Positions 44,590-51,047 of a stretch of DNA of 64,000 bases are shown in pieces. Source of the DNA: Escherichia phage vB_EcoM_EP57; sequence record OR544956; one strand, written 5' to 3'. Below the pieces are notes generated by a model. It was not told where the DNA came from and did not search any database. It saw only the letters and a program-made list of their open reading frames with translations. The translations under genes were made by a program, and so were the position numbers. The number at the start of each line of letters is the position of its first letter. Positions within the stretch are counted from its first letter, which is position 1.

Positions 44590-44919
44590 ATGGAAATTAC
44601 TACAGAACAAGCCCTTATCGATGAGGGTCGTAAAATCTTAGAAAAGTATTTAGGGGAGATTCATAAAACCCCTGGCTATTTGGGTTGGAGAATTGTTGAA
44701 GCTGTAGATTTCCTTCCTCGTAACAGTAAAAACGTCGAAATGCGATCTCTTTTCTTATTAGTAAAGGTGGATGGGGATACGCCTTTTAAAGATGCCGCAG
44801 AACATATTGAAAAAGTTGAAGAGAAAGCTTATGCAGAATTTGCCGATCTTGTTTTAGAACAAGAGATTGAAGGAAAGGTGAATATTTTTATTTTCTTAGA
44901 TTTTGAGGAGGATAAGTGA
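44590..44919 (+). CDS. hypothetical protein
   Basis: ORF track 109 aa; RBS GGAGGAAGG. Confidence 0.35.
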   Translation: MEITTEQALIDEGRKILEKYLGEIHKTPGYLGWRIVEAVDFLPRNSKNVEMRSLFLLVKVDGDTPFKDAAEHIEKVEEKAYAEFADLVLEQEIEGKVNIFIFLDFEEDK

Positions 44920-45659
44920 TCATACACAGAGAAATTACTGTTAAAAGCGATCAAGATCTTTTTATAATTGGAGATCTACACGGTTGTTATAATTTGTATG
45001 AAAAAGGAAAGGCAAAGTTAGGTATCCGAGATACAGATGTGGTTGTATCTCTAGGAGATCTTACTGACCGTGGAAAGCAAAACTTTCGTTGTGTTTTAGA
45101 ATTTACTCGTAAACACAATCGCTACGCTATTCGTGGCAATCATGAAGACATGATGATTAAAGGTATGCTGGAAGGAGATCGTAGCTACTACGAGTGTTGG
45201 TATCAAAATGGAGGATATACGGTCTTTGAAGAATGTGGTGAAGAAGGAGCTACAGCCTTAGCAATGATGACAGAAGATTTACCTGTTGTTCTCATTGTTA
45301 ACTACAGAGGCATGAAACTTGCGTTTATTCATGGTGGGTACCCATCTTCTTTGGAATATCTCCCTGTAACAGATATTCCAGAATACATTTCGAAGATGAC
45401 GAAAACACAGGAAAACCGTTTTGCTGAAGCACTTGTGTGGGACAGAGATATGGTAGACTGTGCTAAAGAGGGAATGAAACTTCCTGTTGTGATGGGTGTG
45501 GATTATGTGTTTCATGGACACTCTTATGTAAAAACACCTATTATCAATGCGAATCGTGTTTATATGGATACTGGATCTGTGTTCAATAATAACTTAACAT
45601 TTGCTTATTTCGATATGGACGGTGGTCTTCAATTTTATTCAACTCTTGAGGAGGATTAA
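44916..45659 (+). CDS. Ser/Thr protein phosphatase (PPP-family metallophosphoesterase)
   Basis: GDLHG, GDLTDRG and GNHE motifs. Confidence 0.7.
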   Translation: MIIHREITVKSDQDLFIIGDLHGCYNLYEKGKAKLGIRDTDVVVSLGDLTDRGKQNFRCVLEFTRKHNRYAIRGNHEDMMIKGMLEGDRSYYECWYQNGGYTVFEECGEEGATALAMMTEDLPVVLIVNYRGMKLAFIHGGYPSSLEYLPVTDIPEYISKMTKTQENRFAEALVWDRDMVDCAKEGMKLPVVMGVDYVFHGHSYVKTPIINANRVYMDTGSVFNNNLTFAYFDMDGGLQFYSTLEED

Positions 45660-45967
45660 TGTATAAGATTACAATTATTCAAAGTGTAGGTAATATCCGT
45701 AAAGAAGTTATCTTAGAAACAGAAGATGTTAATCTTGTTCGTGAGATTGTTCTTAAGGAAGATAACCTGCAAGCTGTAGAATCAGATGCACCGAATCTTA
45801 TGGTGGATCAAGAATATTCTGAACTTCGTCGTATTTTTGAAGAGATTCAGAAGAAAGAAACACAACCTACCATAAAACCTTTTGGTCCTTATGATCCGAG
45901 CAATCCTAGCAGTCCTTGGATCATGAGAAATACGGAACCCTATACACCTTTTGAAATTACTTGTTGA
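45659..45967 (+). CDS. hypothetical protein
   Basis: ORF track 102 aa. Confidence 0.35.
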   Translation: MYKITIIQSVGNIRKEVILETEDVNLVREIVLKEDNLQAVESDAPNLMVDQEYSELRRIFEEIQKKETQPTIKPFGPYDPSNPSSPWIMRNTEPYTPFEITC

Positions 45968-45974
45968 GGTGATT

Positions 45975-46556
45975 ATGGCAGAACTGTTCTATACGGGAGT
46001 TGGAAGTAGGGACATATCTGAAGAAGAGTGGGCTTTGATGGTAGGCATAGGGAAATGGCTTTCAAACCTTGGGTTTAAATTACGGTCTGGGAAGGCAGAG
46101 GGTAGTGATTCTGCTTTTGAAACAGGTGTCCAAGAGTCTGAAAATCCTACTAACAAGGAGATTTATGTTCCTTGGGAAAATTTCAAAGGTAATCAGATTC
46201 CAGGTGATGTTATTGTTCTTGCAAAACCAGATACAATGAACTATGCTATCTCTGTGCAATGGATTAAAGATGTTCACCCAGCTTATGAAAAGCTTAAGCA
46301 GGGTGCTAGAAAATTGCACCAACGTAATGTGCATCAAGTGTTAGGCAGAGATTTGGAGAATCCTGCTCCATCATGTTTCTTATTGGCTTGTGCTAATACT
46401 GATAAACATGGGGATGCAAAAGGTGGAACAGCTACGGCTTGGAAGATAGCTAAAGCCAATAATGTTCCTTGTTTAAACATTCGTGGGAAAACAAAACAAG
46501 AGATTTACGATTTTCTACGACCTTTGGTAATGAGGGCGATAACAAGTGATTCCTAG
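45975..46556 (+). CDS. SLOG/DprA-like Rossmann-fold protein
   Basis: YTGVGSRD and RSGKAEGSDSAFETG blocks; ATG at 45975 after GAGGTGA. Confidence 0.3.
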   Translation: MAELFYTGVGSRDISEEEWALMVGIGKWLSNLGFKLRSGKAEGSDSAFETGVQESENPTNKEIYVPWENFKGNQIPGDVIVLAKPDTMNYAISVQWIKDVHPAYEKLKQGARKLHQRNVHQVLGRDLENPAPSCFLLACANTDKHGDAKGGTATAWKIAKANNVPCLNIRGKTKQEIYDFLRPLVMRAITSDS

Positions 46557-47058
46557 ACGTAAACGTGGTGAACAAAGAACAAACTTGGCAGAAATCTTAG
46601 ATTACAACATGGTTAATGATGTGACAAAAGAAATTCTGCCTGTTGTAGAAGATATTCTTCGTAGAGGGTTACGATTCTGCTCGGATCGGGTGCATTTCAT
46701 GTGGACACATAAAAGTGACTCCGCTTTGAATTTCTATCCTTTGGACTATACTCTGAACAATACAGAGATGAAAGATATCAACAAATATTTAATGGGATAT
46801 AAAGATATAACCGAAACTGTTCTTGGAGAATTGGCAGAAATCTTGGCTAACGATATCCTTAGAAATATTAATAAGGCTCTTGACAGAAGCCCAGCAGGAG
46901 TAGTAGTATCTTTTGCTGTGCCAGATATGGTTAAATATGAGTCTACAATACCTAATAAAGCTTATGCCTTTCTTCGGAGAGACGTTCGTGGAAATGTGTT
47001 GGAGATGGAGTCAAACTACAAGATTGAGGAGGTTTTATGGCAGAGTTCGGATCAGTAA
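46546..47058 (+). CDS. hypothetical protein
   Basis: ORF track 170 aa. Confidence 0.35.
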   Translation: MIPRRKRGEQRTNLAEILDYNMVNDVTKEILPVVEDILRRGLRFCSDRVHFMWTHKSDSALNFYPLDYTLNNTEMKDINKYLMGYKDITETVLGELAEILANDILRNINKALDRSPAGVVVSFAVPDMVKYESTIPNKAYAFLRRDVRGNVLEMESNYKIEEVLWQSSDQ

Positions 47059-47327
47059 CAAGTTTTGAAAGTAACTTCGTTACCGCTTGGGAAGCTTGGG
47101 ATGAAATGGGTGTTGGGGAACTTTATTTTTACAATGTAACACTACGCCCAGAGTATGTTTACCTGGTACCAGAAGGAACAGTTCAAATTGGCATGTATTT
47201 GTCTTCTCAAGACGGTGTTGTTCAATTTGAGTTTTATTCAAACACAACGGACAACGAATTTACATACCGCGCATTTCATGTCAACATGTCTTTAGGAGAG
47301 GAGAAATTTTATGACGACCAAGTTTAA
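47037..47327 (+). CDS. hypothetical protein
   Basis: ORF track 96 aa. Confidence 0.3.
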   Translation: MAEFGSVTSFESNFVTAWEAWDEMGVGELYFYNVTLRPEYVYLVPEGTVQIGMYLSSQDGVVQFEFYSNTTDNEFTYRAFHVNMSLGEEKFYDDQV

Positions 47328-47508
47328 AACAGTAGAAGAAGCCGTAAAAGCAGCTTATGAGGCTTTAGCGGAAGCAGAGCAGTTAGCAGACGAGACTGGT
47401 GAAGGTTTCAGCTTCTCCCCTGAATATGGGATGGGTGGTTATTATGATCCAGAAGATGAAAATGAGAATACTGGAACAAATTGGCATCCATCTTCTTTAA
47501 GTTGTTAA
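47311..47508 (+). CDS. small acidic protein, W-x-S-S-x-S-C terminus (paralog 1)
   Basis: 65 aa ending NWHPSSLSC-stop. Confidence 0.4.
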   Translation: MTTKFKTVEEAVKAAYEALAEAEQLADETGEGFSFSPEYGMGGYYDPEDENENTGTNWHPSSLSC

Positions 47509-47518
47509 TAGGAGGTAA

Positions 47519-47789
47519 AGTGGGAATCGAAGATATCAAAGGTTATAAACCGCATACCGATGACAAAATTGGTAAAGTGAATGCTATTAAAGATGCTGAA
47601 GTTCGATTAGGATTAATCTTTGATGCTCTAATGTCTGAATTGTGGGCTGAACTGGATGATTGTGAAGATTTGGAAGAGTCTACCAATATATCCACCCGCC
47701 TTGACCAAATTTCAATAGCAAAGACTAAGTTGAAAGAAGCTTCTATGTGGGCCTGTCGTTCCGTTTTCCAACCAGAGGAGAAATACTAA
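47519..47789 (+). CDS. hypothetical protein
   Basis: GTG at 47519 after AGGAGG within track ORF 47481..47789. Confidence 0.3.
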
Positions 47790-48007
47790 TGAGTTATCGT
47801 AATGTTGAAGAATTAACTGAAAAAGCCCAAGCTATTATGGCTTTGGTGGACGAACTTACAAAAGAAGCTGAAGATGCTGGTTTTGGTCTTAGTTTAGAAG
47901 ATGACGCAATCTGTTTTGAAGATTGGCAATCCTCTTCTTGTTATGGTGAAGGTGATGATGGTTTCGTTGTTAATTCTCAAGGCGTTTGGCACAGTAGTAG
48001 CTGTTAA
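47789..48007 (+). CDS. small acidic protein, W-x-S-S-S-C terminus (paralog 2)
   Basis: ATG at 47789 after AGGAGA; ends VWHSSSC-stop. Confidence 0.4.
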   Translation: MSYRNVEELTEKAQAIMALVDELTKEAEDAGFGLSLEDDAICFEDWQSSSCYGEGDDGFVVNSQGVWHSSSC

Positions 48008-48016
48008 GGAGAGATT

Positions 48017-48289
48017 GTGGAGTCTGAAGGCGAACTGCTGATAAAAAAGAAAGTTAAAGAGATGGAACAAGCACAAAGAAAGTTTCGTAAGGAAATTGAA
48101 GAACTTTGTGAACAGTTTCAGGAACAAGCTTGGATAGGTGACTACGGTAACGGAGAAACTTATTACCCTACAGGAACGCCAGCCGCAGATCACTATATTG
48201 ATTTCATTTGTGAAGATTATGGTGTAGAGTTGGATGAAAATGGTTTAACCACAAGAGGTGTTTGGATCTCTTCTTCCTCAATGTGTTAG
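48017..48289 (+). CDS. small acidic protein, W-x-S-S-S-S-M-C terminus (paralog 3)
   Basis: GTG start after AAGGAGAG; ends VWISSSSMC-stop. Confidence 0.4.
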   Translation: MESEGELLIKKKVKEMEQAQRKFRKEIEELCEQFQEQAWIGDYGNGETYYPTGTPAADHYIDFICEDYGVELDENGLTTRGVWISSSSMC

Positions 48290-48297
48290 TAAATAAT

Positions 48298-48322
48298 AAC
48301 CCGCTTCGGCGGGTTTTTTATT
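48298..48322 (+). terminator. rho-independent terminator
   Basis: cccgc-ttcg-gcggg then TTTTTTATT. Confidence 0.55.
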
Positions 48323-48349
48323 GACAGGAATCTGGAAGCTTGATAAACT
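48321..48349 (+). promoter_or_regulatory. sigma70-like promoter
   Basis: TTGACA, 17-nt spacer, TAAACT. Confidence 0.35.
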
Positions 48350-48379
48350 TAACCTATCAACCAATAGAGGAGAAATATT

Positions 48380-49321
48380 ATGGTGTTAATTGGTAGCCGT
48401 GCATTGCAAATTCATGCTATGGACATGGGAAAAGACTTGTATCGCCCTTGTGTAGATTTAGATTACCTGTGTACAGAACAAGAGTGGGAAGAATTATCAA
48501 AAATGTTCTCTCAAGACGAGTTTGTTGAACTTGTAGAACGTAAAGGAAACAAAGGCCATGTCAAAATGATAGCTGGTGCACATTTGGAATACGATATTGC
48601 TTCTCAAGGAGATAGCACAGAAGCTTTGATTAGCTATTGTGAAGATTCTGATGATGTTCGTCGAACTTACGCTGGACATGTTGTTGCTCCTTTAGATGTG
48701 CTCTACCTTCTTAAAATGAGTCATCGTTTTAAAAAGGATAGTCCTCACTTCTTTAAAACTATGAAAGATATTCATTTCATGCGGTCACTGGGCGCAAAGA
48801 TCCCAGAAAATCTTAAGAGTATTTATGAGTTGCGTGAGAAAGAAACATACACTTACTCTCATCCGAACTTAAACGTAAAAAGTAAAGAGTTCTTTAAAGG
48901 TGACGAGGTTCCGTATGTTTATGATCATGATTCTATCCATGAAGCAATCGCGTTAATGGATGCTCCAGCATATAAATCTTATATGAAAGATGGAAGTGAA
49001 GTTATGACCAGCAAAGAAAAGTTTTTTGCTCAACCAAAACATGTGCGGCTGTTAGGTGTTTATGAAGAAGCGTGTGTTTTGGCTTTGGAACGTTCACAAA
49101 TTCCTTTCGGTGAAGAGATCGGAGGTCCAACCCCTAAGCAAAGTTTTATAATGGCTTTATCTAAAGTCTGCACATCCATCACTAGTGGTTGGTTTAGGGA
49201 ATATGCTTGGGAAAACTTTTATGTTGTTACTAAGCTATATGAAAACATGGGCGAAAACGACTATGTTGAACGTTTTAAAGCTAATCAACATGTAGTTAAG
49301 CCTTTTGAAGGAGGTTATTAA
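48380..49321 (+). CDS. hypothetical protein, possible nucleotidyltransferase fold
   Basis: 313 aa; N-terminal LIGSRALQ...VDLDYL resembles the GS...DxD pattern. Confidence 0.3.
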   Translation: MVLIGSRALQIHAMDMGKDLYRPCVDLDYLCTEQEWEELSKMFSQDEFVELVERKGNKGHVKMIAGAHLEYDIASQGDSTEALISYCEDSDDVRRTYAGHVVAPLDVLYLLKMSHRFKKDSPHFFKTMKDIHFMRSLGAKIPENLKSIYELREKETYTYSHPNLNVKSKEFFKGDEVPYVYDHDSIHEAIALMDAPAYKSYMKDGSEVMTSKEKFFAQPKHVRLLGVYEEACVLALERSQIPFGEEIGGPTPKQSFIMALSKVCTSITSGWFREYAWENFYVVTKLYENMGENDYVERFKANQHVVKPFEGGY

Positions 49322-49718
49322 TATGTGTGGATATCTTTCAGAAAGTTATTTCAAAGTGACCCAGGAGGATTTAGAAAAAGCACGATTGAAACTGACAGCT
49401 ATTATTGAATACTCTAATACTGTTGATCACAGATTAAAGACTACTAAAGTATCTGTTCCTTGTTGGTTAGGTTTACGGCATAAAACAATGTCTCAGCATG
49501 ACCATGTTGTTCGAGAGATGCATGGTTGGTGTTGGTTTCACGATGTGGCTCTGCATTTTGGTTATATTACAGAAGAAGAGCATAGATTCTGTGAACTAAC
49601 ATATCGTATTCCAACCCTTTACGATTTAGATTTGTGGAAGAAAGCAAACGAGATTTTTCTTACAGAAAGTGATTGGCGTAAAGTTATGGCTTGTCTTGAA
49701 TGGAGGGGTAATGAGTAA
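49305..49718 (+). CDS. hypothetical protein
   Basis: ORF track 137 aa. Confidence 0.35.
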   Translation: MKEVINMCGYLSESYFKVTQEDLEKARLKLTAIIEYSNTVDHRLKTTKVSVPCWLGLRHKTMSQHDHVVREMHGWCWFHDVALHFGYITEEEHRFCELTYRIPTLYDLDLWKKANEIFLTESDWRKVMACLEWRGNE

Positions 49719-50394
49719 AACAGTTTTGTCTATGTTTGACGGATCTGGGATCATGGTGTTACGTTATGCCGAAGCAGGTCACAAGTGTTTTTGTGTAAAC
49801 GCTGATGAAGGGGATCACGGTAAATACGAGGTTAGGATGGAGCACCCAAACATAACCTATGTGAATGCTTGGATAGATTCTACATTCAACCCTGAAGATC
49901 ATGGGATACCTAAACCCGATATTATTTTTGGATTTCCACCTTGCACTATGTTAGCAGGTAGTGGTAGCAAACATGAACGTAGCACAGAGGAATTAGATGA
50001 AGCTTTAGCTAATATTCGTGTAGTGGAAGCTTTGGGTAACAAATATAATGTTCCTTGGATGATTGAGAACCCAGTAGGTAAACTTTCAACCTTATGGCGT
50101 AAACCCGATTTTTACTTTGATCCTTATGAGTATGGTGGGTATTTGTTTGAAGAGGAAGGAAGCTTTCATCCTAAAATGCCTACCCGTGATGGGTATACAA
50201 AGAAAACTTGTATTTGGCACGGCAATGGTTTTGTTCAACCAGTGAAGAAACCAGTAGATCATATAGGCTGCTTTTGGGGTTGGAAAAGCTTAGGTGGAGC
50301 TAGTGCAAAAACAAAACAACTTAGATCCCTAACCGCACGTGGTTTTGCTCGTGCCGTGTTTTTGTCTAACAATCTTCTAGATAAGGAGAAATAA
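49714..50394 (+). CDS. cytosine-C5 methyltransferase-like protein (short, atypical)
   Basis: Motif I-like LSMFDGSGI, motif IV-like FGFPPCT, motif VI-like IENPVG; ATG at 49714. Confidence 0.3.
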   Translation, partial: SKTVLSMFDGSGIMVLRYAEAGHKCFCVNADEGDHGKYEVRMEHPNITYVNAWIDSTFNPEDHGIPKPDIIFGFPPCTMLAGSGSKHERSTEELDEALANIRVVEALGNKYNVPWMIENPVGKLSTLWRKPDFYFDPYEYGGYLFEEEGSFHPKMPTRDGYTKKTCIWHGNGFVQPVKKPVDHIGCFWGWKSLGGASAKTKQLRSLTARGFARAVFLSNNLLDKEK

Positions 50395-51047
50395 TGTCAA
50401 ATTCAAAACCAGTAGTTGCTTATCAAGTAGATCGTAATGATGGTGAAGGAAGTGTTGTTATTTTCAGTACACACGGTCTTGAGGCTCGTCGAAAAGGTGC
50501 ATATCGTTTAGAATGTGAGTTTGAAGACTGCACAAGCCACCGTGTCAAACAATTCGATCAATATGCTGATAAAGGCTTCGTCCCTGTCAAAGCCTTACTG
50601 GAAGATGGTTGGTGGGTATATTCTGCTTTTGATTACTCAAGACTGGAGGAGTCAGCTTCGTGCGCCTCCGAGATCGAATATGATGATTACTATGACACTC
50701 TGTACCTTCCAGAATGGCTTGTCTTTTCTCCTGATGAAAAAAGTGTCTGGAAAACGTGGGAAGAAATGGAGAGACATGCGTATAGCATCAATGAAGCTTT
50801 AGATCGTAAAGCTTGGTTTATTGAGGCAGTAAAGGCGGCATACCCCCAATTCTCATTCTGTGATTTCACTGGTGGCCCAGGATACATTACACATACAGCC
50901 TCTTTTGAGTTTCCTGGTTCACGTTATAAGGGTAATGTTTATTGGGACTGGGATGAAAATAAACAACCTTCGGCTCAAGACTTCCGTTGCTATGTTTGTC
51001 AAGGTGATCAAGAAGCCCTTGACAAATACCTTGAAAGTCTGGTATAG
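50394..51047 (+). CDS. hypothetical protein
   Basis: ORF track 217 aa. Confidence 0.35.
   Translation: MSNSKPVVAYQVDRNDGEGSVVIFSTHGLEARRKGAYRLECEFEDCTSHRVKQFDQYADKGFVPVKALLEDGWWVYSAFDYSRLEESASCASEIEYDDYYDTLYLPEWLVFSPDEKSVWKTWEEMERHAYSINEALDRKAWFIEAVKAAYPQFSFCDFTGGPGYITHTASFEFPGSRYKGNVYWDWDENKQPSAQDFRCYVCQGDQEALDKYLESLV

Follow-up and report, generated by a model that had tools for sequence, protein, structure and literature searches.

Several nucleotidyltransferases of the Pol-beta fold work with a small-protein partner, as in the MNT-HEPN (MntA-HepT), GlnD-PII and GlnE-GS (glutamine synthetase) pairs: in systems of the MNT-HEPN type, a minimal enzyme of this fold moves a nucleoside monophosphate (NMP) to a side-chain hydroxyl of the adjacently encoded small protein, MntA oligo-AMPylating HepT, and GlnD uridylylates PII. 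In the CitX-CitD and MdcG-MdcC pairs, an enzyme of nucleotidyltransferase type loads a thiol-ended, nucleotide-derived prosthetic group onto the conserved Ser of a small acidic carrier protein. The carriers LysW and ArgW are very small and very acidic, and the last residue of their flexible, Trp-containing C-terminal tail (EDWGE) is the point of covalent attachment; LysW has a zinc-finger body and a Glu end, is loaded by an ATP-grasp ligase, and sits in a biosynthetic operon. In Mycobacterium tuberculosis, MenA1 (68 amino acids (aa), one long helix) is encoded upstream of the nucleotidyltransferase MenT1 and blocks its active site (PMC10435456). Here we describe a locus of Escherichia phage vB_EcoM_EP57 (sequence record OR544956; the window, as used herein, is the whole stretch of 64,000 nucleotides that was analysed), in which three open reading frames (ORFs) for small acidic proteins, designated ORF1, ORF2 and ORF3 (positions 47311-48289), are followed on the same strand by a gene for a predicted nucleotidyltransferase (48380-49321). 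The small proteins and the nucleotidyltransferase constitute a conserved, phage-restricted two-part module, of which the gene order is like that of MenA1-MenT1, with the small protein upstream of the enzyme.

ORF1 (47311-47508, plus strand, 65 aa) is a canonical member of the family described below, with a helix at residues 8-29, the FSFSPEYGMGGYY loop and the tail NWHPSSLSC. ORF2 (47789-48007, plus strand, 72 aa) is a divergent subtype devoid of YGMGG, and carries two copies of the tail motif (DWQSSSC...VWHSSSC). ORF3 (48017-48289, plus strand, 90 aa) starts with GTG, and represents the GDYGNGETYYP subtype with the tail GVWISSSSMC. The initial annotation of this DNA, made from its letters alone, had placed the three ORFs at exactly these coordinates, with the ends NWHPSSLSC, VWHSSSC and VWISSSSMC, and its description of the products as acidic, with a helical N-terminal region, is borne out by the computed isoelectric points (pI) of 4.05, 4.05 and 4.40 for ORF1, ORF2 and ORF3, respectively, and by the helix in the AlphaFold2 model of ORF1. 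A strong Shine-Dalgarno sequence is present at each of the three genes (GGAGAGGAG, GAGGAG and AAGGAGAG, respectively). As the start of ORF2 we took ATG at 47789, which has the GAGGAG ribosome-binding site, is the start used in the RefSeq annotation of phage tuntematon (99.4% identical), and brings ORF2 to 70-72 aa, the length of its homologues (the mechanically longest version of this ORF starts with GTG at 47747).

Among the total of 574 ORFs in the window (six frames, at least 30 aa), Cys is the terminal residue in 28, but the end W-x(1-3)-SS-x(0-3)-C is found only in ORF1-3, and the same three are the only ones recognized by the hidden Markov model (HMM) of the family. The Ser codons within the motif vary between the three copies (TCT/AGT/AGC/TCC/TCA), indicating that the conservation acts on the protein; conservation at the nucleotide level (for instance, by overlap with a ribosome-binding site) was thus ruled out as the cause of the shared tail. 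Against the orthologues in the nearest non-identical relative (locus L007), the ratio of nonsynonymous to synonymous substitution rates (dN/dS) came to 0.05 in ORF1 (values of 0.05-0.12 being obtained overall) and to 0.13 in ORF2, dS being close to saturation or past it. The Shine-Dalgarno sites, the unique tail pattern, the differing Ser codons and the low dN/dS altogether indicate that the genes are real, and that ORF1-3 encode strongly acidic paralogues under purifying selection. The region 46500-50500 of the window is 99.6% identical to Dompiswa phage TSP7_1, and shares about 99% identity with further Phapecoctavirus myoviruses of ~150 kb (Stephanstirmvirinae, rV5-like), among them phAPEC8, tuntematon and ESCO13; in the RefSeq record of tuntematon, all the genes of the ORF1-3 region are annotated as hypothetical protein.

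All three products match the profile of PHROG 899, a group with no assigned function (E values of 1.4e-13, 7e-6 and 5.1e-14 for ORF1, ORF2 and ORF3, respectively), each aligning at the C-terminal end of the profile, and they match the family HMM with E values of 4e-25, 2.5e-3 and 4e-17 in the same order. They are paralogous, and belong to a large family of small acidic proteins that is confined to phages. The "tandem paralogs" of the initial annotation therefore stand as paralogues, but not as a strictly tandem set, because the gene for an anti-defense protein, Acb2 (see below), lies between ORF1 and ORF2. PHROG 899 was the only sequence membership that could be assigned: tests for Acb2/Tad1, for precursors of ribosomally synthesized and post-translationally modified peptides (RiPPs), for lipoproteins and for MenA1 all failed, and no model of Pfam, NCBIfam or PADLOC matched ORF1-3 above threshold. 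A profile search of 5.8 billion proteins gave 157 matches, and when 1.84 billion cluster representatives (50% identity clusters) were searched exhaustively with HMMER, 272 matched at E <= 1e-3. When the phage collection was searched by tblastn, ORF1 detected close relatives only and a hand-made consensus peptide gave no match; Pfam analysis of ten homologues with long N-terminal extensions detected no informative fusion.

The body of the family members starts with an N-terminal amphipathic helix, the end of which reads ...EAE.IADE.G..FSFSPAYGMGGTYYP. After the helix come the Gly-rich loop (A)YGMGG(T)YYP and an acidic linker of 10-60 residues, in which about one quarter of the members carry extra W-x-S-S-[D/E/C] repeats. 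YGMGG is present in most members, and the loop, in the form [YW]G-x-G-[GE], is EYGMGGYY in ORF1 and DYGNGETYY in ORF3, and is absent from ORF2. The subtype of ORF2 (no Gly loop, two W-x-SSS-C units) forms a cluster of its own in 29 loci, and is also found in the T4-like Aeromonas phage 31 and in Dhakavirus MX01; orthologues of ORF3 with 42-57% identity are present in the T4-like phages PEi20, Entb_45, Potts1 and PM2.

The family is recognized above all by its C-terminal tail. Cys is the last residue in 258 of the 265 distinct relatives retrieved (124/125 in a first set and 134/140 in a further set), and those that do not end in Cys mostly carry one extra residue after it. Conservation of the Ser/Cys-rich C-terminus in homologues, the lack of which the initial annotation had named as grounds for giving up its idea, is thus clear; its W-x-S-S-S-C form of the motif has to be replaced, with Trp, Ser and terminal Cys retained, by the family-wide consensus G-W-x-[S/P/A]-S-S-x-x-C, in which G is at position -8, W at -7, [S/P/A] at -5, S at -4 and -3, and C at position 0 with its free carboxyl end. 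In the logo built on 256 members chosen for carrying the motif, S(-3) is found in 255, and W(-7) and S(-4) in 249 each. Across the family, the Ser pair is separated from the terminal Cys by 0 to 2 residues, and Cys occurs only once in 68 of 125 members. The residues invariant in an alignment of 62 homologues of ORF1 (F33, G40, M41, G42, G43, W58, S61, S62 and C65) are concentrated in the Gly-rich loop and in the flexible, Cys-ended tail. In the AlphaFold2 model of ORF1 (mean predicted local distance difference test score (pLDDT) 87), the helix of residues 8-29 is followed by ordered loops and a tiny hairpin (43-45 with 58-60), and the least ordered part is the last residues (pLDDT ~61 versus 85-97 elsewhere). 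Since the tail is the least ordered part of a confident model, a functional role of its invariant Ser, Ser and Cys is more likely than a structural one. Neither the ORF1 model (by Foldseek) nor the sequence profile of the small family gave any significant match in PDB.

In order to characterize the gene context, the linkage was examined in both directions. In the forward test, ten diverse small proteins were looked up on long metagenomic contigs, and in all ten a gene encoding the domains DUF7277 and DUF7275 was located on the same strand, no more than ~900 bp downstream; the other neighbours on the ten contigs were unrelated (clamp loader/RegA/DNA polymerase, gp32/gp59, ribonucleotide reductase, helicases and others). 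The arrangement in the window is the same, the last small gene ending at 48289 and the enzyme gene starting at 48380. In the reverse test, 80 IMG/VR loci were gathered by the conserved peptides of the enzyme alone and then scanned with the small-family HMM. One or more Cys-ended small ORFs (1-6 copies per locus) were found in 73 of the 80 loci, in 71 of them upstream on the same strand and in none on the opposite strand, with a median gap of 346 bp to the enzyme gene. When the enzymes were clustered in order to collapse related phages, the partner accompanied 28 of 30 clusters (70% identity) or 20 of 21 (60%). In an unbiased all-against-all clustering of every same-strand ORF in 95 loci, the YGMGG type of the family was present in 80 loci and that of ORF2 in 29; T4 lysozyme and NudE, the next in frequency, reached 26, and their co-occurrence is simply synteny within the T4 lineage. 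The enzyme is found in 734 phage records, including T4-like coliphages, Aeromonas, Acinetobacter, Vibrio and Pseudomonas phages, jumbo phages and actinophages. Among 185,579 genomes of bacterial species, there were four pattern-confirmed hits of the enzyme, all on contigs of metagenome-assembled genomes (MAGs) that also carry the small partner. The position of the module differs between phages, as exemplified by the e.1-e.8 region in Dhakavirus and the interval between nrdD and nrdC.2 in Aeromonas phage 31.

The partner gene (48380-49321, plus strand) encodes a protein of 313 aa, which is composed of DUF7277 (residues 1-87, the fold extending to ~145; E 7.6e-14) and DUF7275 (residues 107-297; E 1.6e-75). 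The initial annotation had noted a possible nucleotidyltransferase-fold protein downstream of the small genes, and this proposal gained support from the AlphaFold2 model (mean pLDDT 92, predicted template-modelling score 0.86) and from the invariant catalytic residues; the enzyme is moreover the near-universal neighbour of the family. In structure comparison, the best matches were MenT1 (score 11.5), TglT/MenT3 (10.0), ANT(2'')-Ia (9.8), Megavirus poly(A) polymerase (9.3), MenT4 (8.8) and LnuA (8.7), followed by other small nucleotidyltransferases; all these matches cover only the first ~145 residues, in agreement with Foldseek. G5, S6, D26, D28 and E70 are invariant in 28 sequences, and correspond to the hG[GS], DxD and third-carboxylate signature of Pol-beta-type nucleotidyltransferases. 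Since this catalytic signature is invariant, the enzyme is probably active; as judged from sequence and model, the partner is a catalytically intact Pol-beta-fold nucleotidyltransferase. By fold (an alpha-beta-alpha-beta-alpha-beta core) and catalytic motif, it belongs to the Pol-beta nucleotidyltransferase superfamily, and not by sequence to DUF1814 (AbiEii), for which no Pfam match was obtained even at E <= 1, the likeness being structural only. A sequence search of PDB with the enzyme gave nothing significant. The C-terminal ~170 residues form a helical part with many invariant His, Lys, Arg and Tyr residues, and no known fold was matched by this part in structure comparison. With a pI of 5.6, the enzyme is acidic like the antibiotic nucleotidyltransferases, and unlike the tRNA-binding MenT toxins.

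By analogy, the module appears to work most like MenAT1, MNT-HEPN and CitX-CitD, in which a nucleotidyltransferase is likewise paired with a small protein, but it differs from each of them. Compared with MenAT1, the phage enzyme is acidic and carries the extra C-terminal domain of ~170 aa (DUF7275), there are up to six paralogous partners, the module occurs only in phages, and the partner has the invariant YGMGG loop and the W-x-x-S-S-x-x-Cys end, both of which are missing from MenA1. Compared with MNT-HEPN, GlnD and GlnE, the phage partner is not a HEPN protein, PII or GS, and the proposed acceptor is the C-terminal Ser/Cys instead of Tyr. As to CitX-CitD and MdcG-MdcC, there is no sequence match to CitD, MdcC or CitX, no lyase or decarboxylase genes are located nearby, and the thiol in the phage family is the encoded terminal Cys. 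The phage family resembles LysW/ArgW in small size, acidity and the conserved flexible tail containing Trp; however, it ends in Cys, adjoins a nucleotidyltransferase, and is not accompanied here by a biosynthetic operon. What is unusual is the strictly terminal Cys, the W-x-x-S-S signature, the arrays of paralogues, the extra DUF7275 domain and the restriction to phages.

We tentatively favour a reading, possible though short of probable, in which the flexible Ser-Ser...Cys tails are acceptors or clients of the nucleotidyltransferase. The exposed tail would enter the active site of the enzyme, where the invariant Ser pair (probably) or possibly the terminal Cys would accept a nucleotidyl or nucleotide-derived group, so that the small proteins would be client or carrier proteins armed by the enzyme. 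The diverged paralogues would present the same modifiable tail on different bodies, and may thereby act on different downstream targets in the infected cell. The tail, and probably its Ser pair, is proposed as the acceptor because the close structural relatives of the enzyme all transfer NMP to a hydroxyl. Modification of small proteins by Pol-beta-type enzymes has precedents in MntA-HepT, GlnD-PII, CitX-CitD and MdcG-MdcC. The 1-6 diverged paralogues that accompany each enzyme, the retention of each subtype across genera and the internal W-x-S-S repeats are better accommodated by several clients or acceptor sites than by one inhibitor. What was observed, as described above, is the paralogy, the conservation of the motif, the purifying selection, the gene linkage, and the fold and catalytic residues of the enzyme. 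From this starting point we infer that the proteins interact physically and that the small ones are substrates and not inhibitors, and likewise which residue is the acceptor and what the biological role would be.

A number of observations weigh against this client model. First, a terminator-like hairpin (48298-48315, plus strand; a 7-bp stem with 5 GC pairs followed by the T-run TTTTATTG), annotated as a terminator in the phAPEC8 records, closes the small-gene cluster, and a putative sigma-70-like promoter (48321-48349, plus strand; TTGACA-17-TAAACT with extended TG, 10 of 12 matches to the consensus) precedes the nucleotidyltransferase gene, which suggests, as judged from these sequence elements, that the two are separate transcription units in this phage; co-transcription of ORF3 and the enzyme gene is thus not obligatory here. 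Second, the acidic enzyme offers no electrostatic complementarity to the acidic small proteins. Third, the enzyme is kept with no small ORF within 3.5 kb at seven loci (L011-13, L019, L062 and L076-77), and the Cys-ended partner is also missing from distant DUF7275 proteins (those of actinophages, a roseophage and Vibrio phage Va3); since the enzyme is found without the small proteins in some relatives, it must have a role independent of them. Fourth, the variable spacing of 0-2 residues between the Ser pair and Cys speaks against a fixed ring-forming chemistry, and nucleotidylylation of Ser alone leaves the strictly terminal Cys unexplained. In the loci examined, the small proteins were never seen without the enzyme, an asymmetry that both a client and an inhibitor model allow.

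The main rival, to which we assign a smaller though real chance, gives the small proteins a MenA1-like role, as inhibitors, regulators or specificity subunits of the enzyme. The helix would bind the enzyme and the Ser-Ser...Cys-COOH tail, acting as a pseudo-substrate, would plug its active site, for instance through chelation of the catalytic metals, and the small proteins would then time or redirect an enzyme of which the true substrate is RNA or a small molecule. The gene order is as in MenA1-MenT1, and the data do not separate this rival cleanly from the client reading. Nevertheless, up to six long-diverged paralogues per enzyme, each kept across genera, are unexpected for a simple inhibitor, and the invariant residues lie in the loop and the tail instead of a co-evolving helix interface. 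The small proteins show no sequence similarity to MenA1 or DUF1814, and the acidity of the enzyme sets it apart from the tRNA-binding MenT toxins. The near-absence of the module from bacterial chromosomes (only the four MAG-contig hits mentioned above) further indicates that this is not a classical toxin-antitoxin system.

Acb2 bears on another explanation, which we consider unlikely: the small proteins might be free-standing effectors of host takeover or anti-defense (decoys, mimics or sponges) that act by the Trp/Ser/Cys tail without the enzyme, the adjacency of which would then reflect a shared pathway or a hotspot of accessory genes instead of physical partnership. The gene at 47520-47789 (plus strand), located between ORF1 and ORF2, encodes an Acb2/Vs.4 sponge of cyclic oligonucleotides, which counteracts the cyclic-oligonucleotide-based antiphage signalling system (CBASS); it matches PF24729 (Acb2_Tad1_hairpin; E 1.2e-19) and PDB 7UQ2, the crystal structure of T4 Vs.4 (Acb2; E 1.6e-42). 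Its stop codon overlaps the start codon of ORF2 (TAATG). Consistent with an effector role, ORF1-3 are situated in an early/accessory region and flank, in this phage, a member of a proven anti-defense class; like many anti-defense proteins, they are small and acidic, occur in several copies and evolve fast outside the motifs; and the terminator-like and promoter-like sites part the small genes from the enzyme gene here. The linkage to a single gene, however, persists across T4-like, rV5-like, jumbo and other phages with wholly different surroundings, and a hotspot effect therefore fails as an explanation. In L007, the genes for ORF1, ORF2, ORF3 and the enzyme are contiguous and colinear without Acb2, so that Acb2 was inserted in a lineage-specific manner, and little about function can be read from its adjacency; a functional link of the small proteins to Acb2 or CBASS was rejected on this ground. 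Acb2/Vs.4 sponges are likewise small early phage proteins, but fold and family differ: only the product of 47520-47789, and none of ORF1-3, matches PF24729 or the solved structures of Acb2/Tad1 sponges. Moreover, ORF1-3 gave no match in PADLOC, NCBIfam, Pfam or solved anti-defense structures.

A bolder form of the client model, which we regard as decidedly unlikely, would take the module as a phage-specific protein-arming system unlike any characterized one, in which the tail is covalently converted by the nucleotidyltransferase and the paralogues carry the resulting warhead or handle to different host targets. Two routes can be drawn: O-nucleotidylylation of Ser might be followed by elimination and thiol addition, or a nucleotide-derived group might be loaded onto the terminal Cys; delivery to the host targets would take place during takeover or counter-defense.

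It is very improbable, in our estimate, that ORF1-3 are RiPP precursors, with a lanthionine-like ring closed at the C-terminus by addition of the terminal Cys after activation and elimination of Ser, or with release of the tail by cleavage to give a small molecule. The tandem diverged copies upstream of an enzyme would suit such a system, Ser-Ser-x-x-Cys resembles the core motifs of lanthipeptides, and ORF2 gave a sub-threshold NCBIfam match to the class IV lanthipeptide family NF038148 (E 0.05; 13.5 bits versus the cut-off of 25), but this match, well under threshold, is the only one to a curated precursor family. The precursor-peptide core proposed by the initial annotation found no support: no LanB/C/M/KC/L, YcaO, radical-SAM enzyme, protease or exporter was found near the genes in the Pfam annotations of the window or of related loci, nor among the conserved neighbour clusters, and the ~100 loci as a whole lacked dehydratases, cyclases, YcaO, radical-SAM enzymes, leader peptidases and exporters. 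Predicted to fold and conserved over the whole length (ORF1 with pLDDT 87), the proteins do not resemble a leader plus core, and the Ser-to-Cys spacing varies (0-2 residues). The other early proposal, a metal-binding or lipid-anchoring tail with the terminal Cys as the ligand or as the site of acylation or prenylation, is the least credible of all, for although the invariant Cys has a free carboxylate and Ser hydroxyls nearby and oligomerization driven by the helix could gather several thiolates, the single Cys of most members (68/125) allows no chelation by a monomer, ORF1-3 have no signal peptide, lipobox or CaaX-type sequence but a hydrophilic helix at the start and Cys at the very last position (bacterial lipoproteins use an N-terminal Cys), and the strict linkage to the nucleotidyltransferase is left unexplained by both.

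No function, solved structure or paper was found for either the small family or the enzyme family, and the literature search gave no paper on PHROG 899 or DUF7275. Many of the large lytic phages that serve as models and in therapy carry the module, among them T4-like Dhakavirus, Aeromonas and Acinetobacter phages, phages like rV5/phAPEC8 or Pseudomonas phiPsa374, and jumbo phages. The retention of the terminal Cys, the invariant Trp and the Ser-Ser pair over hundreds of millions of sequence-years, together with the tie to a nucleotidyltransferase, points to a specific chemistry of the protein tail. If this is true, the module would represent a type of protein modification or enzyme regulation new among those encoded by phages, and a whole block of early genes now listed as "hypothetical" would gain a function; were the tail chemically transformed, the module would stand even further from anything known.

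Downstream of the enzyme gene, the product of 49669-50394 was identified as a Dcm-like methyltransferase (PHROG 757, E 7e-85), in accord with the C5-methyltransferase-like protein noted by the initial annotation. Its gene is, however, conserved in only 10 loci by synteny of the rV5-like lineage, and falls outside the module. The rV5-like loci L011-L013 and L019, in which small ORFs are missing from the vicinity, encode (e.g. L011 3501-4427) a nucleotidyltransferase of 54% identity with intact catalytic residues and the Dcm-like methyltransferase downstream; the small genes may have been lost or relocated in the genome.

At the distant DUF7275 genes of actinophages and Vibrio phage Va3 (L093 4103-5300, L094 4082-4780 and L096 3070-3366), we noticed flanking genes for another type of small acidic protein (...Y.KTGYYDSW...FVEV.P...), which in actinophages forms two or three tandem copies (BLAST E 3e-10 to 5e-4 between copies); the likeness across phyla is marginal (E ~0.05). 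Genes for RNA ligase (Rnl1/Rnl2 type) or RlaP (RNA-ligase-associated nucleotidyltransferase) were found 0-4 kb from the DUF7275 gene in six unrelated phages (L002 2570-3619, L092 6312-7205, L094 1324-1983, L095 1330-2310, L103 655-1431 and L004 7507-8496), and could hint at an RNA-directed role of the enzyme. The idea of an RNA-repair operon was set aside, as RNA ligase and RlaP were not recovered as conserved partners by the unbiased neighbour clustering.

Directly upstream of ORF1, the gene at 47037-47327 (plus strand, 96 aa, PHROG 4991) overlaps the start of ORF1 by 17 nt; it is kept beside the array in 9 loci, including the jumbo-phage contigs L022 and L033, and is a possible additional, lineage-restricted companion. 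Further upstream, the annotation of tuntematon indicates accessory genes for a NinI-like Ser/Thr phosphatase (44916-45659, plus strand) and a DprA-like protein (45951-46556, plus strand). The 170-aa protein encoded by 46546-47058 (plus strand, PHROG 8569) ends in ...EEVLWQSSDQ, a W-x-S-S-D unit resembling the internal repeats of the family; it gave no match to the family HMM and has no terminal Cys, and the resemblance may be coincidence. The 102-aa ORF at 45659-45967 (plus strand) ends in Cys (...PFEITC), and is devoid of the motif.

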